A stretch of DNA of 64,000 nucleotides from an uncultured bacterium. GTDB lineage: Bacteria; CAYUVA01. The notes under the pieces were generated by a model. The model was not told the DNA's origin. It ran no database searches and saw only the letters and a list, made by a program, of their open reading frames with translations. The DNA lies in the NCBI GenBank assembly GCA_964448115.1, contig CAYUVA010000012.1, forward strand, positions 7,769 through 71,768, read 5' to 3'. Shown here one piece after another: positions 18,800-63,470 of the stretch. Numbering within the stretch: position 1 is the stretch's first letter; the number at the start of each line of letters is the position of its first letter. A program made the position numbers and the translations under genes.

Positions 18800-20773
18800 A
18801 TGTTGATTCGTTTACATAGGGACAAGCTGAGCGGAAAGCTGGAGATAGCCTTAACTGGCATAATGATCCTTTATATCCTGGTCATGGTTCAAGCCAAGCT
18901 GAACTGTTTCGATCTCTTTTTACACCTGGCAACCGGCAGGTATATCATTGAAAATTCGAGCATCCCTAGGCAGGATGTCTTCTCGTTCACCAATCTGGGT
19001 CGCCCCTGGACATGCCACGAGTGGGGATTCGGGGTGTTTATCTACTTACTCTACAAGGCAATCGGCTTGGAGTTGCTGAGCCTGCTAAAGCCGATCCTCA
19101 TCGGGCTAACATTCTATCTATGTATCAGGATCACCAGGTTGAAGGGCGCCCAGGCTTGGGCTTTATTCATCCCCATATTCCTCTCGCTGAAGCCGGTACA
19201 CTTCAACATGTTGCTTCGCCCACAATTGTTGACCTTCATGTTCTTAGTGCTAGTGCAATATCTACTGGAGCGAAACCGCTACTCAGGGGAAAAAAGGTTG
19301 CTATACCTGCTTCCACCGATATTCTTGATCTGGGCTAATGTGCATGGGGCGGTTATTATCGGCATGGGTTATTATCTGCTTTATTTGGTCGCCTGCTTCA
19401 TGGACTTGAAGCTTAACCTCCCAATAGGCACGAGTATCGATAAAGAAAGGATGCTGAAGGCATTTTGCCACGCATTATTGATGCTACCAGTTTCATGGTT
19501 GGTTAGCCTGCTGAATCCCAGCAATATCGGTATTTATACCTACTATTTCAAGGTAAGGGGTCTTACAAAGGATATCTTCATCCTCGAATGGCAACCACCC
19601 ACCTTAAGTGGTCATAGCTGGTTCTTCGTATATTTTGCTTTCGCTGTCATCATGTTTCTCCTATGCTGGCGAAGGTTCGGTGCTGTTGAGCTATTTACCC
19701 TTATCGCCTTTGGTTACCTGGGATTATCCGCGCGCAGAAACATGGCAATATTTGTATTTATGAGCCTTCCCATTGTCGCCCTGGCTATAACAACTGCTGG
19801 AAAATGGATATATAAAAAGCTGGGGAATAAACCCCTTCGCCGATGCTTGCAGGTCGTCTATGCGGCTGTAATACTTGGCTTGGGATCATTCATGGCAATC
19901 AGTGTGATAAACGATTGGCGCCTGAAGTACGGGATTGGAGTCGAAGAGAAACAATATCCCCAAAGGGCAGCGGACTTCATCGAACAGAATCAGCTTGTCG
20001 GACAGATGTTCAATTCATACCAGATCGGGGGCTACCTTATCTGGAGATTCTATGGCCAAAGACAGGTGTTCTACGATGGCAGAACCGTTCTGCACAGCTC
20101 ACTTCTGACCAAGCTAACCCGGCAGACCTGGGAGAGGATCTTTGAGGATCTGGAGATAAACTTTTGCATAATCAGCAGCCCCTGGAAGCACGCGGTGGTG
20201 GAGAACCTGGTCATACAAGACTTAGAAGCCTGGCGCCTGGTTTACTGGGATGCCGAGTACCTTGTCTATCTCAAGGATGATGTCATAAATCAACCGGTCA
20301 TAGAGCAACACGGATACCAGTACGCCAATCCATCGATTCTGGTCAGCTCGCTGCCGATAAGTGAATACCCGATACTCATCGAGGAGCTTGAGCGAAATCT
20401 GGCTCTTGCGCCCGACAATCCGATGGCATTGACCATGCTGGCAACGGTTTATGCCATACAAGGTGGTGCTGCAAATAAAGCCGAGGCGATGAGACTGCTC
20501 AGGGAGGCAATAGAGCTGGATCCTCGCTTCGCAAAGGCTTATGCCAGGCTCTCTTACCTTTACTACCAGATTGGGAAATATTCCGATTCGGTTGACTTTG
20601 GATTAAAAGCCATGCAGCTCGGCGTTCAGACCGATGAATTATGGTTTCTGGTCGGCAAGGCTTATGTGAAACTGGGTGATAAAAAAAAGGCAGCCTCGAT
20701 CTTTCGCAACTTAAACCAAAAGGGCTTCATCGATGATGAGCTACTTTATTACCTGAAGCTGGCAGAGGGATGA
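18800..20773 (+). CDS. Polytopic membrane protein with C-terminal TPR repeats (architecture of GT-C fold TPR glycosyltransferases such as TMTC/PMT)
   Basis: About 10 hydrophobic helices in the first 370 aa or so. C-terminal TPR-like repeats (LALAPDNPMALTMLATVYAIQGG ... AIELDPRFAKAYARLSYLYYQIGKY). Function is inferred from architecture only. Confidence 0.75.
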   Translation: MLIRLHRDKLSGKLEIALTGIMILYILVMVQAKLNCFDLFLHLATGRYIIENSSIPRQDVFSFTNLGRPWTCHEWGFGVFIYLLYKAIGLELLSLLKPILIGLTFYLCIRITRLKGAQAWALFIPIFLSLKPVHFNMLLRPQLLTFMFLVLVQYLLERNRYSGEKRLLYLLPPIFLIWANVHGAVIIGMGYYLLYLVACFMDLKLNLPIGTSIDKERMLKAFCHALLMLPVSWLVSLLNPSNIGIYTYYFKVRGLTKDIFILEWQPPTLSGHSWFFVYFAFAVIMFLLCWRRFGAVELFTLIAFGYLGLSARRNMAIFVFMSLPIVALAITTAGKWIYKKLGNKPLRRCLQVVYAAVILGLGSFMAISVINDWRLKYGIGVEEKQYPQRAADFIEQNQLVGQMFNSYQIGGYLIWRFYGQRQVFYDGRTVLHSSLLTKLTRQTWERIFEDLEINFCIISSPWKHAVVENLVIQDLEAWRLVYWDAEYLVYLKDDVINQPVIEQHGYQYANPSILVSSLPISEYPILIEELERNLALAPDNPMALTMLATVYAIQGGAANKAEAMRLLREAIELDPRFAKAYARLSYLYYQIGKYSDSVDFGLKAMQLGVQTDELWFLVGKAYVKLGDKKKAASIFRNLNQKGFIDDELLYYLKLAEG

Positions 20774-20799
20774 AAATTTCACTATACATAGGTGCATAA

Positions 20800-21813
20800 A
20801 TGGATAAGAGCTTGTTTAACCTCAAGCTGCGCTACCACCTTGGGCACATAGCCCAACATGTAAACATGCGCCTGCCCAAGAAACAACGATATCCCAAGGC
20901 TGTGTTGCTTGAGGTTACCGATGCCTGCAACCTGTCCTGCTCGATGTGCCCGGTAAACAATCCAGAGGCGGTGCGAAGAAAGAAAAGAAGCTTCATGGAA
21001 TTCGAGCTTTTCAGGCAGGCGGTAGATGAAATAGCCACCTTTGCTCCCTGTCATCTCCAGCCCCAGGGCGGCGGAGAGCCACTACTACATCCACAATTCG
21101 AGCAGATGCTAAGATATGCAAGGAAAAAGCCTGCAATTACCATTGGATTCAACACCAATGCAATGGCTCTTGATGAACATTGGGCGAGACTCTTGGTAGA
21201 ATTAAAGATAGATGAGATCGGCATCAGCCTCGATGCTCACGATGCACAAAGCTTCAAGGAGATAACAGGAAAGGACGGCTTTGAGAAGGTGAACGAAAAT
21301 ATCCATAGGTTGATCGAGGTCAAGCAAGAAACAGGTTCCACAAAGCCGATGATAAAGCTCCTGCTGGTCATCATGGATGAGAACAATGAGTATGTTAGCG
21401 ATTACATAAACAAATGGATACAGCTAGCCGACCAGGTATGCATCCAGGCAAAACGGGATATGACCGGCAGAAAAGTGCCCCAACCATTGATTCCCCCTCG
21501 CCGTCCTCACCCTTGCACAAGGCTGTTTACCACCGCGGTAGTCAACGCCAAGGGAGAGCTTGTATTGTGTTGCGAGGACTGGGACTCGCAGGTAACCTTC
21601 GGATGCATTAAAGATAAAAGCATCCTTGAACTATGGAATTCCCCCAAGTACGAAGCGTTTCGCAAAAGACACCTATCCGGGAATGTAAAGGGACTGACCT
21701 TGTGCCAGGATTGCTATGTCTTATGCAATGATCACATAGAGTTCGAGCGACGCCAGGGACTTGTCATACAAAGATCCCTCGCCGTGGAGACCTACACGAG
21801 AGCAAGGCAATGA
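20800..21813 (+). CDS. Radical SAM protein with C-terminal SPASM/twitch-like Cys-rich domain
   Basis: CxxxCxxC: EVTDACNLSCSMCP. C-terminal Cys cluster: CTRLF...LCCEDWDS...FGC...LCQDCYVLC. Stop overlaps the next gene's ATG (ATGA). Confidence 0.85.
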   Translation: MDKSLFNLKLRYHLGHIAQHVNMRLPKKQRYPKAVLLEVTDACNLSCSMCPVNNPEAVRRKKRSFMEFELFRQAVDEIATFAPCHLQPQGGGEPLLHPQFEQMLRYARKKPAITIGFNTNAMALDEHWARLLVELKIDEIGISLDAHDAQSFKEITGKDGFEKVNENIHRLIEVKQETGSTKPMIKLLLVIMDENNEYVSDYINKWIQLADQVCIQAKRDMTGRKVPQPLIPPRRPHPCTRLFTTAVVNAKGELVLCCEDWDSQVTFGCIKDKSILELWNSPKYEAFRKRHLSGNVKGLTLCQDCYVLCNDHIEFERRQGLVIQRSLAVETYTRARQ

Positions 21814-23333
21814 CAGCCAGCAACCAGCCCAAAGTATTGCTCATCTTCCCTCCAACCCATTATCGGAATCATACCCCGCCTTTAAACCTCGCTTACTTAT
21901 GTGCTTGCCTGAGGAGGGCGGGTTGCTCGGTCAAGGTGATCGACGCGGCTGCGGTCAAGGTCGATCTAAGCATCGATGAGATAACCTGTCTGGCTAGGGA
22001 TTATCAGCCGGATCTCATCGGTATCACCATGAATGCCCTGTTCATTCTCCCTGCCTACGATCTTGCCCGCCGGTTGCGAGCTATCGGCGTTCCAATAATC
22101 GCTGGCGGTCCCCATCCAAGCATTTTGCCTGATGAAGCGCTTGAAAATGGCAGCCATATCGTGGTCAGAAACGAGGGTGAGTTGACCGTAATGGAGCTTA
22201 TCGAGTGGCTGCGGGGGAATAGAAGGCTGGAGGAGATCGCCGGCATCAGCTTTATGAAAGACGGCGTGGCGAAACATAATCCACCTCGAGCCCTTATCGA
22301 TGATCTCGATTCGCTGCCATTTCCGGATAAGGATATCTTTGAGCGCGCCGATTATATAGAAGACTCCGAGCTTTACCAGTGCTATGGAACTATCTTCTCC
22401 AGCCGCGGCTGCCCGCATAATTGCACATATTGCAATAAGAGCGTCTTCGGTAGGGTAGTGCGCGCTCGCAGCCCGGAAAATGTCCTTGAGGAGATGCTTT
22501 ATCTAAGGCGAAATTATGATGTAACCGCCTTCGAGTTCCTCGATGACACCTTCTCGCTTCGCTTAGATAGGGTCGATAAGATCTGCGATATGATCCTCGC
22601 TGAACCGGAGCTGAAGGGGATCTGCTGGCAGTGCACCACTCGCATGGATCTCACCTCGGACGAGCTGCTTCAAAAGATGCGCCAGGCAGGGTGTTTCAGG
22701 CTATTTTACGGCATGGAAAGCGGAGACCAGGAGACGCTCAAGAGAGTAAATAAGCGCTTGAACATCGAAAAGGCGGTGCAGGTGCTGAAGTGGACACATG
22801 ATCTGAAGATGCGTTCCATCGTTGCTTTTATGTTCGGCTTCCCATGGGAGACAACCAAACATGTCTCCAATACCTACTCCCTGCTCCGGCGCATAAGTCC
22901 TTATGTCGATGAGTACAACCCATTGGGGATGTTAGTTCCGGTGCCGGGCACGCCGATGTATGAGCAGTATCACCGGGAATATGGCTTCACTGACTGGTGG
23001 CTTATGCCGAGCTTCGGCATCAGGTATCGCTCAAACCAGTACTTCCCTTATTTTCGGCGCCGATTCTTCAATGACTTCGCTTTGCTGGAGGATGGCTTTT
23101 TCAGTTACCCGCCGGCGGTTAAAAGAGAGATAAAAAGATGCCTTCGCTTCATCGGCAAGCACAACATCTATAAAAACAATCCGCGCATCAAGGCTCATAC
23201 CATTTATTGCTTCGTCCTTATATCAAAGGTTCTGTATAGGGTGCATCCCAAGCTGGAGCAGCTCGTATTCTTCATACTAGGCAGGATAAAAAAGATCATT
23301 TTTAATTATTCGTTCAGAATAACAAGGAACTAG
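21810..23333 (+). CDS. B12-binding (class B) radical SAM protein
   Basis: N-terminal B12-binding-like region (VLLIFPPTHY ... LNLAYLCACLRRAGCSVKVIDAA). Radical SAM motif SSRGCPHNCTYCNK. 507 aa. Confidence 0.9.
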   Translation: MTASNQPKVLLIFPPTHYRNHTPPLNLAYLCACLRRAGCSVKVIDAAAVKVDLSIDEITCLARDYQPDLIGITMNALFILPAYDLARRLRAIGVPIIAGGPHPSILPDEALENGSHIVVRNEGELTVMELIEWLRGNRRLEEIAGISFMKDGVAKHNPPRALIDDLDSLPFPDKDIFERADYIEDSELYQCYGTIFSSRGCPHNCTYCNKSVFGRVVRARSPENVLEEMLYLRRNYDVTAFEFLDDTFSLRLDRVDKICDMILAEPELKGICWQCTTRMDLTSDELLQKMRQAGCFRLFYGMESGDQETLKRVNKRLNIEKAVQVLKWTHDLKMRSIVAFMFGFPWETTKHVSNTYSLLRRISPYVDEYNPLGMLVPVPGTPMYEQYHREYGFTDWWLMPSFGIRYRSNQYFPYFRRRFFNDFALLEDGFFSYPPAVKREIKRCLRFIGKHNIYKNNPRIKAHTIYCFVLISKVLYRVHPKLEQLVFFILGRIKKIIFNYSFRITRN

Positions 23334-25346: not shown

Positions 25347-26153
25347 TTAGCTGCGCTCGAAGCGATCTGAATTCTGGAATTCCTTGAGCTGCTCAATAGT
25401 CTCTAACCCTAGCTCCTCGGCAATCTGTAGTAGCCTTATGAAGACCTGCGCGCAAGCCCTAGCGTCCCCAAGCGCCCTATGCCGGCCGCTAATATTTATA
25501 TTCAACGCATGGCAAAGGTCATCCAGATTCCTCCTCTTCTGCCCTCGCATCAATCTTCGCGCCAGCTTGACTGTGCAGAAACGTTCATTAGTAATTACCT
25601 GACCCGAATAGCGACGAATCTCCTCTTTGATAAATCCGAAGTCGAAATGTACATTATGCGCAACCATAGCCCTATCTCCCATGAAGTCTATAAATCGAGG
25701 CATTACCTCCTCGGCTCTGGGCGCCTTTTGTACCATTAGCTGGGTTATGCCGGTCAATCGCTCGATAAAGGATGGTATCTCACAGCAGGGATTGACCAGA
25801 GATACGAATTGATCCACCACCTTGCCTTGGCTTATGATCACACCAGCTATTTCAGTTATTCGCGAGTTCCTCGGCGAGATGCCGGTAGTCTCCACATCCA
25901 CGGCTATATATTCGAGGTCGGTCAGGAACTTGCGCTCAAGGATATCCTGCCTTTTGCACCAGTAGCCGTTTTGATCCTTGATGAAGCGATGATCTCGATG
26001 AAACAAGGCATCGACTATCTTCTCCGCCATTTGGTCGTTGCCACCCTCCAGAAGCAGATAATCCGAGTAGATCTCTGTATAGTGAAGCGACTCTTTATCA
26101 TTCAACACCTGATCAATGCGGTTGATGATCTCGTTGTCATCGATAAGTTTCAT
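25347..26153 (-). CDS. DnaQ-like (DEDDh) 3'-5' exonuclease with an N-terminal extension of about 85 aa
   Basis: Exo I: IAVDVETTGISPRNSRITEIAGV. Exo III with His: MVAHNVHFDFGFI. Lies 4 nt downstream of the membrane spermidine-synthase-like gene on the same strand. Confidence 0.85.
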   Translation of the reverse strand: MKLIDDNEIINRIDQVLNDKESLHYTEIYSDYLLLEGGNDQMAEKIVDALFHRDHRFIKDQNGYWCKRQDILERKFLTDLEYIAVDVETTGISPRNSRITEIAGVIISQGKVVDQFVSLVNPCCEIPSFIERLTGITQLMVQKAPRAEEVMPRFIDFMGDRAMVAHNVHFDFGFIKEEIRRYSGQVITNERFCTVKLARRLMRGQKRRNLDDLCHALNINISGRHRALGDARACAQVFIRLLQIAEELGLETIEQLKEFQNSDRFERS

Positions 26154-26157
26154 CTTT

Positions 26158-28587
26158 TCAAGCCTTCAGCATACAGATAGCAGCTATGATATAAATAGCA
26201 CCTGAGAGCATAAAAAGAAAGGTGAATCCGATGGTCATGGCTATAAACATGGCTGCAATGGAGCCGATGACCGATGCGCAGCCATTTATACCCCAGCACC
26301 AAGGAGTAAACTTGGTTTTCCTTTGTGATACCATAAGCAAGCCTGATGGAAAGGGCATGCCTAGCAATAATCCTATCGGTGCAGTGATGACAAGCGCGAT
26401 AGCTACTCTGATAAAAAATGGGATGCCCAGTAGGCTATCGAGCAGTGGGAAAACCAGAGATACATATAATGTGATCAAGCAAACCAGCGCTATTACGACC
26501 AGGGTAACATTTCTTTTGGCTTTATCCTGCAATCTCGAGGCTAGCAGGCTGCCGACCCCGGTAAAGACCAATATCGAAAGCAGCACAACGGTTATCGAGT
26601 AGATCGGATGCCCCAAGAACAGGTTCAGCTTCTGGATCAAAGAGATCTCCATGAACATGAAGCCGACGCCCAGGCAAGTGAAATAAACCAGAAAAAATCC
26701 AGAGCCAGGCATCCGAATCCCGTCTTTGTTGTTCTTGTAAAGTGGATAAAGGATAAAAAGCACCGAGAGGAAGATCGCCTGGATGAATAAGACGATAAGA
26801 ATTATCTCTCCGATGGGGAAACTAGCGCCATCCTGACCGCCTACACCACTGGGAGAGAGTCTGAAGTCATGCCACTTGTAGTACTTGAAGAAAAACGGCG
26901 CATCATCATATACCGGCACGATGTTATATCGGTACATTTCATAGAAAGCTTGCGGATCATCGCTGTTAAGCAAGCCATAAAAAGCGTTGTTCCCCACCCG
27001 TCCAGGCAGGTAGAGTTTCTCAAAGCCATTTTTATCGGCAAAACTACGCAATGTATCTATCTCTCGTCTGGTCAGGGGAGTTTTCTTGAGGATAAAGCTG
27101 GCGTAAGTCCCCTCGCCGATGACCGCAATATTATCCCTTGGATGTCCCATATCGGCACACTCGAAGGCTACTATGGCGAGTGAACATAGCCTGAGCACCT
27201 CCCGTGGAGGACGAAACATGTAGCGGATATAGCATATAGTGCCGTCATCCTTGAGATGAGCCAGCATATCGAGGATGGCTTCTACTGTATAGAGGTAATT
27301 CTCGCTGAGCGTATATGCTCCCGATGCCAGCCCTGACCAGGTGTCCACGCCAGATAACTGGATATGGTCATACTGCTGCTTGCTTCTCCTGATGAAGCTC
27401 CTTCCCTCGCAATAGTGGATATCTACCAGCTTGTGTTGATAAAGATTTCCCGTGAAGTCAGCGAAATACCTGCCGGGTATATCGACCATGACCCGGTTCA
27501 GCTCAGCGCCATCTACCCTTGAGGCTCCGTTTTTCAGCGCGGTGAGGATGTCTATACCCCCGCCTAATCCGATTGCAAGCACCTTCGGTGCATCGTGCAA
27601 TTGGTATGCTACTGAATAAAGTGCATGATCCAGCGCTTCCAACTTGCTAAAGTCCCCATCGAAGGCGGTAAGCATGGTGCCAGCGTCTCCATCTATCGAG
27701 ATCCCGTACTGCGGGGGGATGTAGCCCTTATAGCGGTCGCTTAAACCGACTATATGCATCGGCGCCGGATGCTCGCTGATAGAGGTTACATCCAGGCGGG
27801 ATATCAGGCTCCACTTGGAGAAGACGATGCGAGGGGCGTAGCCCTGCTTGGATAGCGCAAGCATCTCCGCCAGTCCCTTGCTCGGACAAGGAGGGACGCG
27901 CAGGGCGGTAGGAGATATGACAAACAGGAAGACAAAGATAAAAACTGATCCACCGACCTTTAGATAATCCCAACACTTTAAGGATCCAAGAGAAAATAAA
28001 ATAAAGGCTGCTAATGGTAATGTCGCACAGATTATTAAAACACGCGGCGCACCTAGAGGTGATATCAAGCCAGCCACCAGCAGGCATCCTACCCCGGCGC
28101 CGAGTAGATCCCAGAAATAGATGCGACTTATTCTCGCTGGATACATGGTAAAAGAGGCGCCAATAATCACCCCGGCAAAGAAAAATGGCACAAACAACAA
28201 TAGGTAATATAAGAACAGGTAGATCAACTGTATTGGCTCAGACCAAACCTTGAACGGATCCAGCGGTATCTCTCTAAGTAGAATATAGGCTACAATAGTG
28301 CTTATCGAGAAAAATAGCGAATTATCGGACAGCATCCTCTTATGCGCATCGTCTCTGGCAAGGCTGCTGCTTACCGACAGATAAGCCCCGGATGCGCCGA
28401 AGCCCAACAGCACGATACTTATAACCATGAAGGCGAAGTGGTACCATATCGTTATACTGCATATCCGAGTTAGCAGGATCTCCAGTGAAAGCACCGAACA
28501 GGAGACCAGGAAGATCCCGGCATAGACGCTGCTGGAGAATCGATTCGAGGTGTTATAATTCATTTCTATCCTTGAGCTATTATTCAA
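26158..28587 (-). CDS. Membrane-embedded spermidine synthase-like (aminopropyltransferase-fold) protein
   Basis: 809 aa with many TM helices at both ends. Central Rossmann region VLAIGLGGGIDILTALKNGASRVDGAELNRVMVDI ... KLVDIHYCEGRSF ... YDHIQLSGVD matches the spermidine/spermine synthase SAM/dcSAM-binding fold. Confidence 0.8.
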   Translation of the reverse strand: MNNSSRIEMNYNTSNRFSSSVYAGIFLVSCSVLSLEILLTRICSITIWYHFAFMVISIVLLGFGASGAYLSVSSSLARDDAHKRMLSDNSLFFSISTIVAYILLREIPLDPFKVWSEPIQLIYLFLYYLLLFVPFFFAGVIIGASFTMYPARISRIYFWDLLGAGVGCLLVAGLISPLGAPRVLIICATLPLAAFILFSLGSLKCWDYLKVGGSVFIFVFLFVISPTALRVPPCPSKGLAEMLALSKQGYAPRIVFSKWSLISRLDVTSISEHPAPMHIVGLSDRYKGYIPPQYGISIDGDAGTMLTAFDGDFSKLEALDHALYSVAYQLHDAPKVLAIGLGGGIDILTALKNGASRVDGAELNRVMVDIPGRYFADFTGNLYQHKLVDIHYCEGRSFIRRSKQQYDHIQLSGVDTWSGLASGAYTLSENYLYTVEAILDMLAHLKDDGTICYIRYMFRPPREVLRLCSLAIVAFECADMGHPRDNIAVIGEGTYASFILKKTPLTRREIDTLRSFADKNGFEKLYLPGRVGNNAFYGLLNSDDPQAFYEMYRYNIVPVYDDAPFFFKYYKWHDFRLSPSGVGGQDGASFPIGEIILIVLFIQAIFLSVLFILYPLYKNNKDGIRMPGSGFFLVYFTCLGVGFMFMEISLIQKLNLFLGHPIYSITVVLLSILVFTGVGSLLASRLQDKAKRNVTLVVIALVCLITLYVSLVFPLLDSLLGIPFFIRVAIALVITAPIGLLLGMPFPSGLLMVSQRKTKFTPWCWGINGCASVIGSIAAMFIAMTIGFTFLFMLSGAIYIIAAICMLKA

Positions 28588-28769: not shown

Positions 28770-29624
28770 ATGCATCAAGAGAACCCAATGAACATTGCAG
28801 CAGATCATATCGAGTTTCGCCGTTTCATACTTCAGTGCGAGCGCATCATCGCCCAGATCGATGACTATGCTGATCGCCTGGAAGCGCTGGTTGAGCCATT
28901 CAACAGACTTCTATTGGAGCGTCGCCTGGTCGAGGATGCTGTTATGCGCCTTTTCAAGGATGAGGATTATCTAAGAAGCCAGTCGAGTTGTCTGCATAAG
29001 AATGAGCTTAAGTTATATCGCGATCCACACGATGAGTTCTCGGTTCGACTATTTCTATGGCAGGCTGGAGTGATGTCCGAGATACATGATCACGGCAGTT
29101 GGGGGCTGGTCGGATGCGCTCTAAATCAACTCAAGATTCTTCATTATCGAAGGCTCGATGATGGTTCTAAACCTGGTTTCGCCGAGTTGGAACCGAGCAA
29201 ACAAGTTTTTCTGGAGCCTGGACAGTGCGAGAAGGTGTTTCCCTTCAACCATGGCATCCACCAGGTCGGAGCTGATGTGATCAAGCCGGCTATATCGATC
29301 AGCCTTTATCTCAAGCCACTGCGTAAGGGATATATCTACGCTTTTAACCGGTTGCTCAACAAGTGTTGGAAGGAGTATCCGACTATTGTTGAAAAAAAGT
29401 ACCTCGCAACCTTGCTTTTCGAGCACTTCGAGAGCAGCAGCAGGTATAATGCGCTGTGGGCAGCGAGCGATGATAGAACACCACTGGTGAGACTGGAGGC
29501 GATGAAATTACTTTTAAAAGTCGCGCCGGAGAGGAGGCAGGATATCATCGAGAAAGGTTTGCACGATCCTGCACAGGAGGTTCGTAAGGGGCTAAAGGAA
29601 TATCTGGAGGGGATAGGCGACTAG
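28770..29624 (+). CDS. Hypothetical protein with cupin-like (cysteine-dioxygenase-type) N-terminal half and HEAT-like repeats at the C-terminus
   Basis: IHDHGSWGLVGC ... HGIHQVGAD are candidate metal-binding His motifs. C-terminal ALWAASDDRTPLVRLEAMKLLLKVAPERRQDIIEKGLHDPAQEVRK is HEAT/PBS-lyase-like. First gene of an eight-gene + strand operon. Confidence 0.6.
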   Translation: MHQENPMNIAADHIEFRRFILQCERIIAQIDDYADRLEALVEPFNRLLLERRLVEDAVMRLFKDEDYLRSQSSCLHKNELKLYRDPHDEFSVRLFLWQAGVMSEIHDHGSWGLVGCALNQLKILHYRRLDDGSKPGFAELEPSKQVFLEPGQCEKVFPFNHGIHQVGADVIKPAISISLYLKPLRKGYIYAFNRLLNKCWKEYPTIVEKKYLATLLFEHFESSSRYNALWAASDDRTPLVRLEAMKLLLKVAPERRQDIIEKGLHDPAQEVRKGLKEYLEGIGD

Positions 29625-31024: not shown

Positions 31025-31068
31025 TACAAACCGATGTAACAAAGGCAAACTGCCTATAAACAGTCCAG

Positions 31069-34624: not shown

Positions 34625-34636
34625 CAAGGTTGGCTC

Positions 34637-36579: not shown

Positions 36580-36595
36580 TTGATATCTCACGCAA

Positions 36596-48568: not shown

Positions 48569-50680
<2,112 letters not shown>

Positions 50681-52110: not shown

Positions 52111-52115
52111 TGGGA

Positions 52116-52646
52116 TCAGACGATCTCGAAACGCTGTGAGTGAGGATTTATCAACAATCCGTTGTCTATATCCCTGGTGATTGCTATCCTCTCGACCAGC
52201 TCCCTGGCTCTGGTCATATCATCGATTGAAAGATGGAAGCTCCATAAGGTACGGTATCGGATGCGCTGCACCACCTCGAAGCCTTTGTATAGCTTACGCA
52301 GGGAGGCTAGGGCTATGTCGCCGCGGGTATCTGCCAAGTACTCACTTATTCCAAGTATTACCGTGTCTTCTGCATGGCGCGCTCTCGATTTGCCGAAGTA
52401 CTGCTCGGTGTGGATGCTGAAGGTGTTCTTGTTGGGGTTGACGAATAGCTTGGTCTGTGTAGCCAATTTATGCAGTATCCTCTCCGCCTCATTTTTATCC
52501 TTGCAGTCAAGCTCGATCTCCCAAAGATCATCCCGCTTGAGGTTCATAAGCTCACCGGAATATCCCATATCATCCACCAGTGTTGCCAGGGTGGTATTAG
52601 CCACCAGGTCCTGGGTTATAAGATGTACGATAAGGAATGCCTTCAT
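52116..52646 (-). CDS. purS: Tandem-duplicated PurS (FGAM synthase PurS subunit, two PurS domains fused)
   Basis: 176 aa, about twice the length of a PurS domain. Both halves carry the PurS pattern (LANTTLATLVDDMGY...LWEIELDC...FVNPNKNTF; second half LADTRGDIALASLRKLYKG...LWSFHLS...LINPHSQRFEI). Directly downstream of purQ with a 4-nt overlap. Confidence 0.7.
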   Translation of the reverse strand: MKAFLIVHLITQDLVANTTLATLVDDMGYSGELMNLKRDDLWEIELDCKDKNEAERILHKLATQTKLFVNPNKNTFSIHTEQYFGKSRARHAEDTVILGISEYLADTRGDIALASLRKLYKGFEVVQRIRYRTLWSFHLSIDDMTRARELVERIAITRDIDNGLLINPHSQRFEIV

Positions 52647-53497: not shown

Positions 53498-53499
53498 AC

Positions 53500-55973: not shown

Positions 55974-56106
55974 CTATCACTTTATCACTCTATCACTTAT
56001 CAATTCTTTCCATGTGATTTCTGTGTCTTGGTTGTAATGTTCTTTTTTCCTACCTCACGCCTTCCCTCCTTTATCACTCTATCAATCTACCACTCTATCA
56101 CTTTTC
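55974..56106. repeat. Two clusters of CTATCA(C) direct repeats in the divergent purL / MFS promoter region
   Basis: Cluster A 55974-56003 (ctatcactttatcactctatcacttatcaa). Cluster B 56070-56106. Exact 15-mer TTTATCACTCTATCA at 55981-55995 and again at 56070-56084. Confidence 0.5.
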
Positions 56107-56402: not shown

Positions 56403-57635
56403 ATGTCGCTTAATACACGAAAAAACGACCTTCTGATATCTCTTAAGGGACAAGGCTTGACTCGAAGGGTGCTTGCGATCTCCATGGTGCGCCTAAGCGA
56501 TGCGCTGAGCAATAGCCTGCTGATGATCGTGATACCACTGATCATTCATGATCTCCATGCAGAGGGATTCAAGGAGCTTCCACGAGAGACATTGGTCGGC
56601 ATCGCCATAGCTGTTTATGGCTTTACAATGGCTCTAGGACAGCGCCCCATGGCTAATCTAACCGACCGTATCGGTCGCCGCAAGCCGTTTATCTTGGCTG
56701 GTTTGCTAGCATTGGCTCTAATTACCTTCTCTTACGGCATGGTCGAGTCCTACCCTCAATTAATAATGCTGCGCTTCCTCCACGGCATGGCAGCAGCCAC
56801 CATCATACCGGCATCCCTGGGGTTGCTGGTAAAATTCAGCTCTCAGCAGAGCAGAGGCGGCTCCATGGGATTTTATACGACCTTTAGAGGATTGGGATTT
56901 TTTCTTGGTCCTATCCTTAGCGGTTATATAACCGTGACTTATGGCAGGAGTTGGGTATTTGCTACCGGTGCATTCTTTGTTGTCCTCGGCTTTTTGTTCA
57001 TGCTAACCGTGGGGGAGGGATCCCGCCGCACATCTGCTCAAGCTGATGAGGAATCGATGCCGGGAAATGAGATGGCTGCTTTGGCGACAAGCCACATGAT
57101 CCTCGCCGTGGTCAGTTTCGCATGGGGATTTGGCATGACCATGATGACCACCCTGGAGAATGAGTTCAATGAGCGGCTTGGTCAGGATGCCTTTCACTTT
57201 GGTATCGCCTTCTCTGCCATGGTTCTGGTGCGCCTATTCTTGCAGTTTCCCTTTGGCAGGTTAAGTGATCGGATTGGCAGGAAGAGGGTTATCATGTTGG
57301 GGCTTTGCCTGATGGCGCCAGCTACAATACTACTTGGCTATGCTCCTAGTACTGAATGGCTGATCTTCTTTCGTGCCTTGCAGGGTATCGGTTCGGCTGC
57401 ATTAGCATCGCCGCTTTTCGCATTAGCAGCCGATCTATCCCAGGCAGGCAAGGAAGCCCAGCAGGTGAGTTTGATCGCAACCGGCTTCGGATTGGGGCTT
57501 GCTAGCGGTCCCTTGGTTACAGGATTCCTGGCTGGTTACGTATCCTTCTACTGTCCCTTTTATGTCGCAGCAGCCATGACCCTTCTAGGCGCTCTGTTTG
57601 TATGGTTAATAGTTCCGGGAACTAGTGCTAGGTAG
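56403..57635 (+). CDS. MFS transporter
   Basis: 12-TM pattern. MFS signature between TM2 and TM3: LTDRIGRRKPFILAGL, and its repeat LSDRIGRKRVIMLGL in the second half. Confidence 0.9.
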   Translation: MSLNTRKNDLLISLKGQGLTRRVLAISMVRLSDALSNSLLMIVIPLIIHDLHAEGFKELPRETLVGIAIAVYGFTMALGQRPMANLTDRIGRRKPFILAGLLALALITFSYGMVESYPQLIMLRFLHGMAAATIIPASLGLLVKFSSQQSRGGSMGFYTTFRGLGFFLGPILSGYITVTYGRSWVFATGAFFVVLGFLFMLTVGEGSRRTSAQADEESMPGNEMAALATSHMILAVVSFAWGFGMTMMTTLENEFNERLGQDAFHFGIAFSAMVLVRLFLQFPFGRLSDRIGRKRVIMLGLCLMAPATILLGYAPSTEWLIFFRALQGIGSAALASPLFALAADLSQAGKEAQQVSLIATGFGLGLASGPLVTGFLAGYVSFYCPFYVAAAMTLLGALFVWLIVPGTSAR

Positions 57636-57696
57636 CAGATGCTACCAATATAGTTAAAGATAATGTATCCTTCTGGGTAAAAGGGAGGGACGAAGT

Positions 57697-58776
57697 ATGT
57701 CAAAGGTTCTGGTTACCGGTGCCTGCGGTTTTCTCGGCACCCATCTGGTTGAGGAATTTATTGCTGCTGGATACGATCTCAAAGCCACTGACCTGCCAGA
57801 TATGGATTCAGACTTCGTTACCGGGCTGGGAGCTGAATTTATACCATCTGATGTAACCGACATCGACTCGCTGCGCAAGGTAGTAAAGGGCTGCGATATC
57901 GTAGTACACAATGCTGGCATCTTCGATTTCAGCGCGTCGAGGGAGCTTCTTTTCGATGTCAATTGCGGTGGGGTTCATAACATGGCAAAAGCTTCCTTGG
58001 AGGCTGGCTTAAAGCGCTTCATAATAATAAGCTCGGTAGCGGTCTATGGCTCCCCTGCCTACATCCCCATCGATGAAGAGCATCCTAAAGCGCCCTCTAA
58101 CAACTACGGTCTATCCAAGTATGCCGGGGAGTTGGCTGCATTCAAGTACTACCACGAGAACGGTCTGCCGGTTACATCCTTGCGCCCCACACTCATTTAT
58201 GGTCCCCGCAGCACTTATGGTCATGCCTGTTTCCTCGCTTTGGCTCAACTGGTAAAATGGAGGCTCAAGCGGTTACCACTTTTGGGCATCAAGGGAGGCT
58301 TTTACGCTCATGCAGTTCATGCAGAGGATGTGGCACGGGCTGCGGTGTTGGTTGCACAAAATGATCGCGCCATCGGGGGCGCCTACAACCTGGTCGATGA
58401 TACTCCTTTGACAGTCGAGCAGTATCTCCAATCCTTGATTGAGCCATTCGGATTAAGTCCCCTATTCAAATTCCCAATTTTCAAACCAATCTGGCGCGGT
58501 TGCGCAGCCATGTTGGTCAAACATTCAAGGTGGGCGATCAATCTACTAAATAGGCGATTGCAACACCTTTTTGACAGAATGTGCCAGCAGTTTGAGCTTC
58601 GTACTCCCTTAAGACCGCGCCTGGACATCGAGTACATCGATTATTCACGCCAGGACATGATCTTCTCCAACCAGAGACTGAAAAAACTTGGCTTCAAGTT
58701 CAACTATCCCGACTTCAGGACTGGTATAGCTGAGACGGTGCAATGGTATAAGGACAATGGGTGGTTGGTCAGATAA
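57697..58776 (+). CDS. NAD-dependent epimerase/dehydratase (extended SDR)
   Basis: VLVTGACGFLGTHLV (GxxGxxG). Catalytic YGLSKYAGE (YxxxK). 359 aa. Confidence 0.92.
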   Translation: MSKVLVTGACGFLGTHLVEEFIAAGYDLKATDLPDMDSDFVTGLGAEFIPSDVTDIDSLRKVVKGCDIVVHNAGIFDFSASRELLFDVNCGGVHNMAKASLEAGLKRFIIISSVAVYGSPAYIPIDEEHPKAPSNNYGLSKYAGELAAFKYYHENGLPVTSLRPTLIYGPRSTYGHACFLALAQLVKWRLKRLPLLGIKGGFYAHAVHAEDVARAAVLVAQNDRAIGGAYNLVDDTPLTVEQYLQSLIEPFGLSPLFKFPIFKPIWRGCAAMLVKHSRWAINLLNRRLQHLFDRMCQQFELRTPLRPRLDIEYIDYSRQDMIFSNQRLKKLGFKFNYPDFRTGIAETVQWYKDNGWLVR

Positions 58777-59489: not shown

Positions 59490-60842
59490 TTACATGCCCT
59501 GGATATAGCCGAGACTCTTAAGCAGCTCCAATCGTTCAGCATCCTGTGGCGAGCGCTTAGGCTTAAAAGATGCGCTTTCATTCAGATCGACCTGGTAGCT
59601 ATCGATAAAATCTAGCTTTTGTGTGGTTAGGAAATCCTTGGTAAAAAGCTCGCCCAGTACTTTACCGTCCATATCCCTTGCCACTGGCAATCCAAAGTAA
59701 TATAAAAGGGTCGGTGTAATATCCAGCACTGATGCTCGTTTAATCCTGGTTCCCTTTCTAATTCCCTTGCCGAAGGCGATGATGACTCCATTGATGCTGT
59801 GCCAGCCGTAAATACCCCTTCTTATTATATCATCGCCCACCTGGATCGGCTCGGTTGGATCGTAATCCCTGAAACCATGGTCTGAAACCACCATTAAAAG
59901 CGTATCATCATCCACCAGTTTCATGAGTTCACCAAGATAGCGATCCAGCACCCTGTAGTAATTCAATATCACCTTGCCAGCGAATAGCTTGTATTTCTCT
60001 TCCATTGATGTTGGATTAAGCTTACCTTTATTCATCTGTCTATATCGACGATAGTCCTTCCAGTACCAATGAGAGAGCATATCGGCTCCCTCGTAATAGA
60101 CTGCCAGGAACCTCGGATGCTTGTTTTCCCACAAGTACTTGCCTATTTTATGATAACTAAGGTCCTTGAAATACATGGTGAATGAGCCGGTCTGAGTCAG
60201 GATGTTATCCTTGAGGAGCAACTCCATCTCCTTTTCACCGCGTTTGGTATGCATCAAAGGAAGTATCTCCTCGAAGAAACCTGGCGGATAAACCGAGGAA
60301 GCATAAGTATTGTTGGCATCTATGGCGAAAACCGGCCAGCCGGATCCCTCATCCTTCTGGCGCAACGGATAGGTAACATCGGAGCAGATATACCCTCTTA
60401 TCTCTTCTGGCGGATAGGTAACCCAGAAGCCGACAATACCTGGGATCATATTATGCTCGCTGAGCAGGTTCCAGATCGCCTTGGTTCTTCTCATGTTGGA
60501 CGACACCGGCGCCAGATCTCCCTTTTCAGTCTGCACCGTGAAACTCCTGATGCCGTGAACTTGAGGGCTATAGCCGGTCATTATGCTGGTCCATATCGCC
60601 GGCGAAAACATCGGCTCGATGCTTGTAAGAACGCCACTGGAGCCTTGGGTTATCATTCGTTCGAAGTTGGGAAGCTCGCCAGCATCGCGAAGCTGATCGA
60701 TTATCTCCCAATCAATACCGTCGAAACCTAGTAGTATTGCCTTTCTTTCAGCTCCCGAATTCCTCTTATGACAAGCTAAGCCACCCTGAAGCAAGAGCAT
60801 GCAGATAAGCAAAGCTGCTATCTTTGTATATACACATCTCAT
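59490..60842 (-). CDS. Lipoprotein of the alkaline-phosphatase superfamily (type I phosphodiesterase / nucleotide pyrophosphatase family), paralogue of the gene at 39439-41121
   Basis: Lipobox LLQGGLAC. ILLGFDGIDWEII ... SIEPMFSPAIWTSIMTGYSPQVHGI ... VVSDHGF. Confidence 0.85.
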   Translation of the reverse strand: MRCVYTKIAALLICMLLLQGGLACHKRNSGAERKAILLGFDGIDWEIIDQLRDAGELPNFERMITQGSSGVLTSIEPMFSPAIWTSIMTGYSPQVHGIRSFTVQTEKGDLAPVSSNMRRTKAIWNLLSEHNMIPGIVGFWVTYPPEEIRGYICSDVTYPLRQKDEGSGWPVFAIDANNTYASSVYPPGFFEEILPLMHTKRGEKEMELLLKDNILTQTGSFTMYFKDLSYHKIGKYLWENKHPRFLAVYYEGADMLSHWYWKDYRRYRQMNKGKLNPTSMEEKYKLFAGKVILNYYRVLDRYLGELMKLVDDDTLLMVVSDHGFRDYDPTEPIQVGDDIIRRGIYGWHSINGVIIAFGKGIRKGTRIKRASVLDITPTLLYYFGLPVARDMDGKVLGELFTKDFLTTQKLDFIDSYQVDLNESASFKPKRSPQDAERLELLKSLGYIQGM

Positions 60843-60930: not shown

Positions 60931-62232
60931 ATGAAAAGTGAGCTTTTAAGATCGCCTACCGATATTTTCATACGCTACCTGCCTATCCTGCATATCGCTG
61001 ATGCTATACGCCAGAAAGATGAGCAGCTTGAGATCCTCGATGTTGGAGGGGCTAATGGTATTGCTGCAGAATTGCTCGAAAAAGATAGTGTCATTATAGC
61101 AGACCTGGCTGCCTTCGAGCACGAAAACATGGTCATCGCCGATGCTGCCCGGCTACCATTCGTAGATGATACATTCGATATAGCCATCAGCATCGATACA
61201 CTTGAACACATACACCCAACATCACGCGAAAAGGTCATGGAAGAGGTGCTGCGGGTCTGCATACGGGGAGCTTTGCTGGTTTTTCCCTATAACCACACGC
61301 AGATAGTGAAAGCGGAGCGAAAAATTCTTGAATTCCAGGATCATCTGGGCATAGATGCTCGATTCCTTCATGAACATGAAGAGTATGGCTTGGTCAAGAT
61401 CAGTCAAGTGGAGGGATATCTAGCTCGAACAGGCTACGCCTATGAGCGTTTGCCGCTTAGCGCTTTGACCTTATGGTTACTAGAGCATGTTCTGGAGGGC
61501 TTTTTAGGGTATCTTCCAATGGGTGAAGAACTGCTTAATGCTGCCTATCAGCTTACCAACCGCTGCCTCATGGAGAGCTTGTCCATCGGGTTGCCCTATC
61601 GAATGGGGTATTTTATAGGAAAATCGATAAATCCAGGGCAGGTTATGCAACAGGTAACTCGTACAAAGAAAAAAAGGACTGTTCCTGCGCGGGAAATTAA
61701 CCAGTTTATCAAGGCGATAATAGGATCAAGGCAAGGCTATTCAGAGATGGTCGCCTACTGCGAGCAAGCCAAAGACGAGATTCGACAACAACATGAAGAA
61801 CTGGAAAAACATGCAAGCTACCAGAGGGAGCTTCTACAGGTAATTAGTGAGCTAAAACAAACCATTGAGCAGATGCGCCAGGAGTTCCAAGAGAAGAACG
61901 ACCATATAGATAGGCTGCAAACCTATATCAAGAAGCTGGAAGGTCAATATGCCCAGGCCATTATAAGCACAGAATCCCTGGTGGAGCAGATAAATCACCT
62001 CAAACACAAAATTAGGCAGCTCAATGAAGAAAGCCAACTGCGAAACGAGTACATTAGTAAATTGGAGGCTGAAGATAAGCAAAAAGGAGAATACATAGAA
62101 AAACAAGGTAGAGACTACCGAGACTTAGAAAGGCGATTTGCCGATCTCGAGGAGGAATTCAGGAACCTACAACAGAAATATGAATATATTACCAACCATA
62201 GGCTCTATAGGCTCATAGAAAGATTTATGTAA
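60931..62232 (+). CDS. Class I SAM-dependent methyltransferase with a C-terminal coiled coil of about 150 aa
   Basis: Motif I: ILDVGGANG. Methyltransf_11-like: AARLPFVDDTFDIAISIDTLEHI. Residues 280-433 or so are heptad-rich (EELEKHASYQRELLQVISELKQTIEQMRQEFQEKNDHIDRLQTYIKKLEGQ...). Confidence 0.85.
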   Translation: MKSELLRSPTDIFIRYLPILHIADAIRQKDEQLEILDVGGANGIAAELLEKDSVIIADLAAFEHENMVIADAARLPFVDDTFDIAISIDTLEHIHPTSREKVMEEVLRVCIRGALLVFPYNHTQIVKAERKILEFQDHLGIDARFLHEHEEYGLVKISQVEGYLARTGYAYERLPLSALTLWLLEHVLEGFLGYLPMGEELLNAAYQLTNRCLMESLSIGLPYRMGYFIGKSINPGQVMQQVTRTKKKRTVPAREINQFIKAIIGSRQGYSEMVAYCEQAKDEIRQQHEELEKHASYQRELLQVISELKQTIEQMRQEFQEKNDHIDRLQTYIKKLEGQYAQAIISTESLVEQINHLKHKIRQLNEESQLRNEYISKLEAEDKQKGEYIEKQGRDYRDLERRFADLEEEFRNLQQKYEYITNHRLYRLIERFM

Positions 62233-62360
62233 CAAGATAATGTTTTCCTTCATTTTTAGGGCTTGCATTCTGAGCAAAATACCCAGGGAGCCGTACCTGT
62301 AAATTTTACTTGCATGAATAATTTATTATGTTACTATTGTTATAGAGAAGGCAGGCAGAA

Positions 62361-63470
62361 ATGAAGGTTGCCATAGTACATGATTGGCTCACGGGTATGA
62401 GAGGTGGCGAGAGGGTGCTGGAGATTCTTTGTCAAATGTTCCCCGACGCGGAGATATATACCCTTTTTCACCACCAGGGGAGCGTTTCGCCGATAATCGA
62501 GAGACACCGCATTCACACCAGCTTCCTTCAGAAAGCGCCCCGCAGCTTGAACTATAGGTACATGCTGCCGCTATTTCCTTATGCGGTGGAGCAGTTCAAC
62601 CTAAAAGGATACGATTTGGTGATCAGCTCCTCGCACTGCGCAGCTATGGGCGCTATAACCGGCAGCTATTGCTGCCATATCTGCTACTCATTCACCCCTG
62701 CCAGGTACCTGTGGGAGATGCAGGATGAGTACTTCAATTCAAATGGCAAGAGGAGGATTACCAGGGCGATAATAGATTACCTCAGCAAGCACTTGCGCCA
62801 ATGGGAGGTATGCGCTAGCCATCGGGTCGATCTTTTTATCGCTATCTCGGAACATATCAAGCGACGGATAAACAAGTACTATCGCCGTGATGCTGTTGTC
62901 TTGCACCCACCGGTTAACCATGAGACATTCTACAACACCGGGGTAGCAAAAGAGGATTTTTACCTCATCGTGTCTGCTCCCGCTCCATATAAACGCCTTG
63001 ATTTAGCCATCGAGGCCTTCAATCGCCTAGGCGATCAGCTTGTGATTATCGGAGATGGTCCCCAGATGAAGAAGCTAAGGTCAGCCTCAAATGGCAATAT
63101 CAAGTTTTTAGGCTGGCAGCCGGATAGGGTACTGAACGATTACTATAATCGAGCTAGAGCCTTGATATTTCCAGGAATAGAGGATTACGGTTTAACGCCA
63201 CTGGAAGCGAACGCTGTTGGCACGCCGGTCATCGCCCTTGCAGCCGGTGGGGTCCTGGAGACGATCAAAGAAAACATAGGTGGAATCTTCTTCGATCATC
63301 AAGATGTCGATTCTCTATGTGAGGCTGTACAAAGATCAAAAAAGATCTCCCTTGATAGAGAGGCGATGATCGAACATACAAAAAGGTTCTCCATCCAATA
63401 CTTCATGGCAGAGTTTAAATCTCTCTTACAAAGGACGATAGCAAACTTTGGCAAAAAAGAGAAAACCTGA
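62361..63470 (+). CDS. Glycosyltransferase family 1 (GT4-type)
   Basis: KVAIVHDWLTGMRGGERVL N-terminal motif. Donor-binding FPGIEDYGLTPLEANAVGTPVIALAAGGVLETI. Confidence 0.9.
   Translation: MKVAIVHDWLTGMRGGERVLEILCQMFPDAEIYTLFHHQGSVSPIIERHRIHTSFLQKAPRSLNYRYMLPLFPYAVEQFNLKGYDLVISSSHCAAMGAITGSYCCHICYSFTPARYLWEMQDEYFNSNGKRRITRAIIDYLSKHLRQWEVCASHRVDLFIAISEHIKRRINKYYRRDAVVLHPPVNHETFYNTGVAKEDFYLIVSAPAPYKRLDLAIEAFNRLGDQLVIIGDGPQMKKLRSASNGNIKFLGWQPDRVLNDYYNRARALIFPGIEDYGLTPLEANAVGTPVIALAAGGVLETIKENIGGIFFDHQDVDSLCEAVQRSKKISLDREAMIEHTKRFSIQYFMAEFKSLLQRTIANFGKKEKT

Follow-up and report, generated by a model that had tools for sequence, protein, structure and literature searches.

Does a dense concentration of glycosyltransferase (GT) and radical S-adenosylmethionine (rSAM) genes in an uncultured bacterium form one large island for an envelope glycoconjugate or lipid, or several ordinary operons? 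The question is raised by positions 18,800 to 63,470 of a 64,000-nucleotide stretch of contig CAYUVA010000012.1 (GCA_964448115.1; the whole stretch is hereafter the window), which a first-pass annotation had read as one tightly organized island and the likeliest place for a novel system. Our analysis favors the second answer: with a probability of roughly 0.6, this is a native chromosomal neighborhood in which several independent envelope-glycosylation operons of known kinds, most likely working by a multi-component scheme, lie between housekeeping genes and in part share transcription units with them. The nearest recognizable relative of the lineage belongs to the phylum CSSED10-310.

Genes were called mechanically as open reading frames (ORFs) and scanned against Pfam and NCBIfam, which gave 31 main genes in the region and, as a background for enrichment, 13 genes upstream of it in the same window. 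Envelope and rSAM classes make up 15 of the 31 genes vs. 0 of the 13 (Fisher p = 0.0015), and the seven GTs among 31 genes correspond to p ~2e-6 against an assumed base rate of 2%, a general figure not derived from this genome. The enrichment is thus real, and the earlier counts are largely right. Pfam and NCBIfam bear out the four rSAM genes, five GT-A/GT-B enzymes (three GT4, two GT2), two PF01663 phosphodiesterases, a trio of FAD, CCG Fe-S and thioredoxin proteins (31965-35560), a PAS histidine kinase embedded in a minus-strand run, and two epimerase-type genes, one being WecB, above its curated cut-off, and the other a generic short-chain dehydrogenase/reductase (SDR) annotated as “epimerase/dehydratase.” The evidence supports a region in which genes for envelope glycosylation, and possibly lipid-related ones, predominate; overall they are of ordinary kinds with a few unusual members.

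The arrangement of these genes argues against a single system. Strand changes and gaps split the region into at least nine transcription units, with housekeeping genes interspersed (Table 1). The ABC-F, DEDD exonuclease and purS genes lie 4-12 bp from envelope genes on the same strand (a GT-C gene, a spermidine-synthase-like (SpeE-like) gene and a GT2 gene, respectively), and mixed-function operons seem common in this genome. These mixed-function pairs were noted at window positions 16742-18800, 26153-26158 and 52110-52116. The tight operon structure described in the first pass is found within sub-operons only, housekeeping genes are packed equally tightly, and because of this 4-12 bp spacing, proximity is here weak evidence of shared function.

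The composition of the region is native. Third-position GC (GC3) is 0.576 for 26 non-housekeeping genes vs. 0.573 for nine housekeeping genes (Mann-Whitney p = 1.0), the codon-usage distance is 0.071 vs. 0.081 (Mann-Whitney p = 0.34), and the GC profile stays level at 0.45-0.54 across the region. A tRNA search revealed no insertion site, Pfam scans no integrase or transposase, and the search for flanking direct repeats only chance-level ones. With host-like composition and no mobility marks, a horizontally acquired genomic island, for which a GC and codon-usage comparison had been proposed as a check, was rejected. An Rfam scan found no element, and promoter and terminator scans returned chance-level results that did not help in delimiting operons.

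A complete polysaccharide, O-antigen or capsule cluster was likewise rejected. Several GTs and sugar-nucleotide enzymes of such a cluster are present (five GT2/GT4 genes, WecB and the SDR), but the initiating transferase, flippase, polymerase and exporter are not: the region's main genes gave no match to a WbaP/WecA-type phosphoglycosyltransferase (PF02397, PF00953), scans of the main genes and of the larger intergenic ORFs (which gave no family matches) turned up no Wzx, Wzy, Wzc, Wza or ABC exporter, and the window holds no PF04138 or PF01943 match indicative of a GtrA/Wzx flippase. The only transporter in the region is a generic major facilitator superfamily (MFS) protein, the ABC protein there being the soluble ABC-F factor. 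A defense system was also set aside, the sole hint being a sub-threshold GT4-conflict match (22.8 bits).

Conservation is the other line of evidence. The fusion of a GT2 domain with a left-handed beta-helix (hexapeptide) domain, here GT2-LbH, has one other full-length homologue in 5.8e9 proteins (P0122, 47% identity), from a metagenome-assembled genome (MAG) of candidate division CSSED10-310, a rare phylum (PMC8248873). On that contig (L003, fusion at 2050-4515) a phosphodiesterase gene again follows the fusion with an overlap, and its product is 62% identical to the cytoplasmic phosphodiesterase of the window (PDE575, whose true start is probably M16). GT2-LbH and PDE575 thus form a conserved overlapping pair, the only block in common with a recognizable relative. 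On L003 the GT2-LbH homologue comes after a small methyltransferase and a separate hexapeptide protein of 424 aa. This contig (16.7 kb, one incomplete MAG) carries no B12-rSAM, kinase, YfhO-like or WecB gene, the homologue lists contain no CSSED10-310 orthologue of a B12-rSAM or YfhO-like protein, and homologues of the other genes examined sit in different neighborhoods. A scan of 185,579 species genomes, for which LigA served as an unbiased synteny anchor, returned nothing above 47% identity (matches of 44-47%, in Nitrospiria and Ardenticatenia), and two metagenome scans, with the phosphodiesterase and with a two-sequence alignment of it, returned no match. Neighborhood conservation in relatives, another proposed check, is seen for the GT2-LbH/PDE575 pair but not for the rest, few relatives making this a weak test. 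The outcome comes close to what the first-pass annotation had itself named as counting against an island, namely dispersal in relatives and host-typical composition.

Table 1. Genes and transcription units of the region, in window coordinates. Two bit scores joined by a slash, here and in the text, are score and curated cut-off; TM, transmembrane.
Feature	Position	Strand	Remarks
GT-C-TPR protein	18800-20773	+	Modelled GT-C-fold membrane domain (aa 1-520), C-terminal TPR domain
rSAM/SPASM enzyme, uncharacterised subfamily	20800-21813	+	PF04055 72.7 bits, PF13186 50 bits; 26 bp after GT-C gene
B12-rSAM-1	21810-23333	+	PF02310 and PF04055; start overlaps rSAM/SPASM gene by 4 nt
Polytopic membrane protein, 590 aa	23378-25150	-	~10 TM segments; family not assigned
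DEDD/RNase T-type 3'-5' exonuclease	25347-26153	-	PF00929 130.6 bits; NCBIfam DEDD exonuclease/DnaQ-like; 4 bp downstream of 809-aa protein gene
Membrane protein, 809 aa, central spermidine-synthase-like domain	26158-28587	-	TM profile
284-aa protein without family match, then 466-aa GT4	28770-31024	+	1-nt overlap between genes; GT4 at 29624-31024
Alpha/beta-fold hydrolase	31069-31968	+	PF00561 72 bits; NCBIfam sub-threshold only
FAD-linked oxidase, AGPS-like clade	31965-33500	+	PF01565, PF02913
CCG-domain Fe-S protein (GlpC/GlcF/HdrB-like)	33500-34624	+	PF02754 86.6 bits; 1-nt overlap with FAD gene
Exported thioredoxin (WCGWC) fused to TPR	34637-35560	+	Pfam thioredoxin and TPR; N-terminal hydrophobic segment; DsbD-C/YbgF-like in NCBIfam
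ELP3-core-like rSAM with Radical_SAM_C, without acetyltransferase domain	35557-36579	+	PF04055 72 bits, PF16199 66 bits
GT4	36652-37893	+	PF13692 68 bits; TIGR03087 140/317 bits; converges on minus-strand operon
B12-rSAM-2	37835-39400	-	PF02310 and PF04055; BchE 225/481 bits
PDE575, cytoplasmic phosphodiesterase/alkaline phosphatase (AP) superfamily	39439-41166	-	PF01663 118.7 bits; no TM segment
GT2-LbH fusion, 813 aa	41114-43555	-	TM helix, GT2, 3 TM helices, linker, left-handed beta-helix (hexapeptide)
PAS sensor histidine kinase, cytoplasmic	43559-45052	-	PAS, HisKA and HATPase_c matches; no TM segment
Putative divergent YfhO-family (GT-C-type) protein	45083-47440	-	12-14 TM segments and C-terminal TM
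WecB, non-hydrolysing UDP-GlcNAc 2-epimerase	47437-48537	-	TIGR00236 301.9 bits (cut-off 210); PF02350 302.7 bits
LigA, NAD-dependent DNA ligase	48581-50680	+	Full LigA domain set; housekeeping interruption
Soluble GT2 (GT2-384)	50956-52110	-	PF00535 88.5 bits; 5 bp downstream of purS
purS-purQ-purL (FGAM synthase)	52116-55881	-	Pfam; housekeeping interruption
MFS transporter, then SDR “epimerase/dehydratase”	56403-58776	+	Pfam; SDR at 57697-58776
PDE450, exported phosphodiesterase	59490-60842	-	PF01663 97.4 bits; signal/lipobox-like N-terminus
Class I methyltransferase with coiled-coil tail, then GT4	60931-63470	+	Pfam/NCBIfam; GT4 at 62361-63470
Response regulator, receiver domain only before window cut	63540-64000	+	PF00072 83.2 bits
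Unit: ABC-F, GT-C-TPR, rSAM/SPASM, B12-rSAM-1			
Unit: 590-aa membrane protein			Alone
Unit: SpeE-like membrane protein, DEDD exonuclease			
Unit: plus-strand operon	28770-37893	+	Eight genes
Unit: minus-strand run	48537-37835	-	Six genes, including the PAS kinase
Unit: LigA			
Unit: PurL-PurQ-PurS, GT2-384			
Unit: MFS transporter, SDR			Possibly with Zn-ribbon gene
Unit: PDE450			
Unit: methyltransferase, GT4			Possibly with response regulator

The best-supported linked units are small: GT-C-TPR with the rSAM/SPASM enzyme and B12-rSAM-1; WecB with the YfhO-like protein; GT2-LbH with PDE575, perhaps joined by B12-rSAM-2; and the AGPS-like FAD protein with its CCG partner. Four large polytopic proteins were GT-C candidates, none giving a GT-C match in Pfam at a threshold as loose as E ≤ 5, and the three GT-C-like proteins of the first pass come down to two verified cases, GT-C-TPR by its fold and 45083-47440 by homology to YfhO. 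A search with the membrane domain of GT-C-TPR (18800-20359) yielded 20,042 clusters (50% identity) at E ≤ 1e-3; 40 sampled family members did not match any membrane Pfam model, and a profile of these 40 recovered TPR proteins only from the PDB, with no GT-C at the sequence level. The AlphaFold model built on the family alignment has a pLDDT of 89.8 and a pTM of 0.91, and its best structural matches are STT3, PglB, AglB and DPY19. Because this confident model shows a GT-C fold, the protein is, as modelled, a TPR-tailed GT-C glycosyltransferase from a family without a Pfam model. Compared to STT3, PglB, AglB and ArnT, it is only 9-13% identical and lacks a sequence-level profile match, and in contrast to the first three, the listed conserved positions of its family do not include a WWDYG-type motif, its soluble domain is instead common to the YfhO family (hhalign 87%), and a C-terminal TPR domain is added. 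Invariant residues of the family include D38, W75, R140, W178, E263 and R313. Two contexts of GT-C-TPR homologues are without rSAM genes, one homologue being solitary and the other (L014) lying amid GT2, TMEM260, GT87 and PMT_2 genes.

The second GT-C gene has no direct Pfam match at E ≤ 5, and PF09586 is annotated on 20/20 of its Pfam-annotated non-self matches (those with long alignments, covering 76-96% of the query, are 21-26% identical), so that, judged by homology and a fitting topology, it is probably a divergent YfhO. YfhO proteins are GT-C-type enzymes that use C55-phosphate-sugar donors and work with GT-A partners (PMC8035078). The gene overlaps by 4 nt with wecB, the only gene of these classes to score above a curated equivalog cut-off, and the link between the two looks real. 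Elsewhere, homologues of both GT-C proteins (L010, L014) lie among GT2, GT4, flippase, PMT_2, GT87 and TMEM260 genes, an ordinary setting for such genes. The region resembles the CsbB/GtcA/YfhO, GtrABC and ArnC/ArnT systems (PMC8035078) in having a putative YfhO-family gene and a second GT-C gene near GT2 genes and WecB, and in the GT2, flippase and other GT-C genes that surround homologues elsewhere. It differs from these systems in that no GtrA/Wzx flippase was found in the window, that B12-rSAM genes share the strand-runs, and that the lineage is uncultured. Unlike CsbB/GtrB, the neighboring membrane GT2 is hexapeptide-fused and HpnB/CruG-like; the kinase gene separates it from the YfhO-like gene, and TM helices follow its GT2 domain.

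The two remaining GT-C candidates fared differently. The 590-aa protein has no Pfam, NCBIfam or PDB match, hhalign comparisons with YfhO, GT-C-TPR and PMT_2 (alone and with its one homologue) were negative, and a single-sequence AlphaFold2 model had a pLDDT of 39 and no usable fold. Its one homologue (26% identity, E 2e-7) is found on a Deltaproteobacteria plasmid in a glycan cluster, adjoining a PMT_2 gene, a hint at GT-C identity that we treat as a lead only. The 809-aa protein was rejected as a GT-C on account of its spermidine-synthase-like domain (PF01564, E 0.0016; NCBIfam polyamine aminopropyltransferase, 3e-6; spermidine synthases in the PDB, weakly). This domain lies between two multi-helix membrane domains, and the DEDD exonuclease gene follows after 4 bp.

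The GT-C-TPR gene is followed by two rSAM genes, and the 26-bp gap and 4-nt overlap between the three make this linked unit look real. All NCBIfam matches of the rSAM/SPASM enzyme are far below cut-offs (HpnH 38/225 bits), and its nearest solved structures are BtrN, anSME, MoaA and DesII, of which BtrN and DesII act on sugars. B12-rSAM-1 is likewise sub-cut-off for its best NCBIfam models (ApyD 165/750, HpnJ 163/578 and BchE 155/481 bits) and 29% identical to B12-rSAM-2. The fourth rSAM protein scores 91.7/350 bits for ELP3 and 76/180 bits for TIGR01212, with a partial match to ELP3 in the PDB (8e-20). The combination of B12-rSAM with GT-C proposed in the first pass is present at the sub-operon level (18800-23333 and the minus-strand run), but not as one system.

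B12-rSAM-2 belongs to a subfamily with homologues across phyla at 48-55% identity, and six of its genomic contexts were inspected (L001 510-12757; L007 1-15220; L008 7004-15330; L015 3424-10638; L020 1-6022; L021 1-1114 and 10001-13302). These come from Omnitrophota and other uncultured bacteria, and tandem B12-rSAM paralogues occur in 6/6, in arrays of 3-10, accompanied by UbiA prenyltransferases (4/6), class I methyltransferases (4/6), rSAM-SPASM enzymes (3/6), paired SDRs (2/6), AP-superfamily phosphodiesterases or sulfatases (2/6), a PMT_2 GT-C (1/6), a GT2 adjoining a PF01663 phosphodiesterase (1/6; L015, phosphodiesterase 26-31% identical to PDE575), and in some cases a polyprenyl synthase. 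The co-presence of UbiA, SDRs and a phosphatase in these arrays recalls the synthesis of polyprenyl-phosphate sugar donors. B12-rSAM-2 thus corresponds to one conserved member of the arrays, some of which contain phosphodiesterase, GT2 and GT-C genes as the window does; unlike them, the window has a single copy, no array, and neither UbiA nor a polyprenyl synthase nor a partnering class I methyltransferase. Such recurrence at the family level suggests a functional connection among B12-rSAM-2, PDE575 and GT2-LbH, as well as a lipid-anchored substrate.

In the plus-strand operon, the best solved relatives of the FAD protein over the full length are alkyl-dihydroxyacetone-phosphate synthases (AGPS; 2uuu, 2.4e-79; 4bby, 1e-56), and the alignment keeps equivalents of guinea-pig AGPS R419, Y578 and HHH615-617, which we take to be the catalytic residues described in the AGPS literature. 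A glycolate or D-lactate dehydrogenase as its closest match was set aside, these enzymes matching the N-terminal (FAD) half only. Higher-scoring full-length homologues (34-35% identity, 285-328 bits) are nonetheless found on Mesorhizobium, Roseibium and Cupriavidus replicons, and in the first two (L017 5950-7398; L018 6019-7479) adjoin xylulokinase, LacI and sugar ABC-transporter genes. Because these homologues from sugar-catabolic operons keep the Arg, the Tyr and an (E/H)HH loop, the AGPS residue signature is not diagnostic of ether-lipid synthesis, and the AGPS-like clade probably includes sugar or polyol catabolic enzymes. In further contrast to AGPS, the gene is translationally coupled to that of a CCG Fe-S subunit (TfrB 111, LdhH 101 and GlpC 73 bits, all sub-cut-off), a pairing that looks real as a linked unit, and no acyl-dihydroxyacetone phosphate (acyl-DHAP) or fatty-alcohol genes lie nearby: a scan of the window for the AGPS pathway found no PF01553 acyltransferase and no fatty-acyl reductase (FAR-type). 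Because of the coupled Fe-S subunit, it can be argued that the FAD protein is a true dehydrogenase, and a related dehydrogenase role is a live rival to an AGPS function. The overall AGPS reaction is non-redox.

How the units would work can be outlined from what is known of such enzymes. The domain identities, the modelled GT-C fold, the operon geometry, the native composition and the conservation of the GT2-LbH/PDE575 pair are results of the analysis, whereas what the enzymes act on, in which order and direction they do so, and whether the units are connected is inferred. WecB and the SDR would make or modify sugar nucleotides in the cytoplasm, from which the membrane GT2 and soluble GT4 enzymes would attach sugars, on the inner side of the membrane, to a lipid that serves as carrier or acceptor. 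GT2-LbH would be of the lipid-acceptor type, its hexapeptide domain possibly acylating an amino sugar. The STT3-like GT-C-TPR and the YfhO-like protein would then use lipid-linked donors to glycosylate acceptors outside the membrane. For the rSAM enzymes that share strand-runs with GT-C genes (3/4), the most plausible role would be to methylate or oxidize a sugar or a lipid-linked intermediate.

Several observations weigh against such independent, ordinary operons. The case for non-conservation comes from a single relative, represented by one 16.7-kb contig, and from distant homologues (21-55% identity); the LigA-anchored scan gave no relative closer than 47% identity and the metagenome scans no match, so that there are few relatives to compare. 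The B12-rSAM family co-occurs elsewhere with phosphodiesterase, GT2, UbiA and GT-C genes, and both GT-C genes of the window share a strand-run with a B12-rSAM gene, a hint of a genuine functional theme. The enrichment has strong statistical support, and the region includes embedded regulators. Neither a flippase nor a clear CsbB/GtrB-type polyprenyl-phosphate GT2 was found in the window, the pathway being incomplete there. An island encompassing the whole 18.8-63.5 kb, co-regulated under the PAS kinase and the terminal regulator to make one product, an envelope glycoconjugate or a modified lipid, would account for the density of GT, GT-C, rSAM, epimerase and phosphodiesterase genes, for the kinase within the minus-strand run and for a response regulator after the last GT4. 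We consider it decidedly improbable, given the nine or more units, interrupted by LigA, PurSQL and the exonuclease, the native composition without mobility marks, the two-gene pair that is all the nearest relative has in common, the genes being dispersed in that one available genome, the different neighbors of individual genes elsewhere and the absence of initiating transferase, flippase, polymerase and exporter from what was scanned. A membrane-lipid pathway in the convergent operons at 28.8-48.5 kb is a narrower proposal: the AGPS-like flavoprotein would make the precursor of an ether glycerolipid whose alkyl chains rSAM and B12-rSAM enzymes modify, with a sugar head group added and acylated through GT2-LbH and GT4, and a phosphate trimmed by the phosphodiesterase. 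B12-rSAM enzymes are established lipid modifiers (GrsA/B, HpnJ/P/R and the ladderane enzyme; PMC13459092), those related to B12-rSAM-2 accompany UbiA and polyprenyl synthase genes, and Agps homologues, widespread in MAGs, serve as ether-lipid markers (PMC11868695), to which the full-length likeness to solved AGPS and its retained catalytic residues can be added. The GT2 domain of GT2-LbH matches PF13506 (Glyco_transf_21) and aligns end to end with the hopene-associated HpnB (170/379 bits) and with CruG (140/600 bits), named in NCBIfam as a carotenoid 2'-O-glycosyltransferase. Against this, sugar-catabolic homologues have the same residues, so that the signature is not diagnostic, the coupling to a CCG protein suggests a dehydrogenase, DHAP acyltransferase, fatty-acyl reductase, UbiA and polyprenyl synthase were not found in the window, the solved relatives of the ELP3-like rSAM are tRNA-modification enzymes of ELP3 type rather than known lipid enzymes, and every Hpn-type match is far below cut-off, leaving this pathway doubtful. 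A hopanoid cluster as such was rejected: beyond GT2-LbH/HpnB, the likeness of the B12-rSAMs to HpnJ (163-170/578), of the SDR to HpnA (102/368) and of the SPASM enzyme to HpnH is sub-threshold, the genes are spread over different operons, and the window contains no squalene-hopene cyclase.

Two further readings concern the rSAM enzymes. For 18800-23333, one could imagine protein or peptide modification, in which an oligosaccharyltransferase-like (OST-like) GT-C glycosylates a substrate that the SPASM and B12 enzymes also modify, in the manner of ribosomally synthesized and post-translationally modified peptides (RiPPs). The protein-glycosylating enzymes STT3, PglB, AglB and DPY19 as best structural matches, the TPR tail as a typical protein-binding module, the RiPP enzyme ApyD as top NCBIfam match of B12-rSAM-1 and the frequency of peptide maturases among SPASM enzymes would all fit. 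We nonetheless hold this to be very improbable: every rSAM score is far under its family cut-off, a precursor-peptide gene would not fit into the gaps of 12, 26, -4 and 44 bp (no search was made for precursors at other loci), the solved structures closest to the SPASM enzyme include BtrN and DesII, which act on sugars, the OST-type WWDYG is not among the listed conserved positions, and two GT-C homologue contexts lack rSAM genes. It is more tempting to speculate on an rSAM-tailored extracytoplasmic glycosylation, here and in the Omnitrophota-type arrays, in which B12 and SPASM rSAM enzymes would alter polyprenyl-phosphate or otherwise lipid-carried sugars by C-methylation, oxidation or ring contraction, the GT2-hexapeptide fusion and phosphodiesterase would form a donor-building module, and dedicated GT-C enzymes, the STT3-like GT-C-TPR family and a divergent YfhO, would deliver the unusual sugars to the envelope. 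We regard this as unlikely; if true, it would add a new biochemical layer to the known three-component glycosylation scheme and give a function to large unexplained B12-rSAM arrays.

Because the evidence points to ordinary native envelope operons, the proposal of a single novel island would matter little. The genes add new members to known kinds, with exceptions of modest interest in the GT-C-TPR family, the GT2-LbH/PDE575 module and the B12-rSAM neighborhood. A TPR-tailed membrane family of more than 20,000 clusters without a Pfam model can now be placed, by its modelled fold, among the GT-C enzymes. The GT2-hexapeptide and phosphodiesterase pair is kept in two members of very rare lineages, with two full-length fusions in 5.8 billion proteins, and the recurrent proximity of B12-rSAM genes to GT-C, GT2, phosphodiesterase and UbiA genes provides a testable lead on what the arrays do. 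The AGPS-like result also calls for care in surveys in which Agps homology alone is scored as ether-lipid potential.

Among the more distal genes, the soluble GT2-384 reaches only 22.8 bits against ArnC. The adjacent PurS ORF (52116-52646) encodes 176 aa, of which residues 25-78 weakly match PF02700; this is about twice the customary PurS length, and the protein may be duplicated or extended. Between purL and the MFS gene, an intergenic region of 521 bp holds two clusters of ~4 tandem 8-nt repeats (TATCACTY; 55975-56002 and 56072-56102), which may be iterated binding sites of a putative regulator. The SDR scores highest as a sugar epimerase/dehydratase, with LegB (110/475 bits) and HpnA both sub-cut-off, and PDE450 is, from its N-terminus, probably a lipoprotein. 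Upstream of the last GT4, the gene at 60931-62232 combines a methyltransferase domain with a coiled-coil tail of ~170 residues that gives SMC/Rad50-like low-complexity matches. The sigma-54 response regulator announced at the window end is borne out for its receiver domain, but no sigma-54 domain is visible before the window cut; a genuine sigma-54 activator is encoded at 5574-6965, before the start of the region under study. It is part of a dense signaling block at 262-10126, which also includes a response regulator-HD protein, two hybrid receiver (REC)-kinases, a single REC protein, a kinase and a 1051-aa adenylate-cyclase/AAA/TPR protein.

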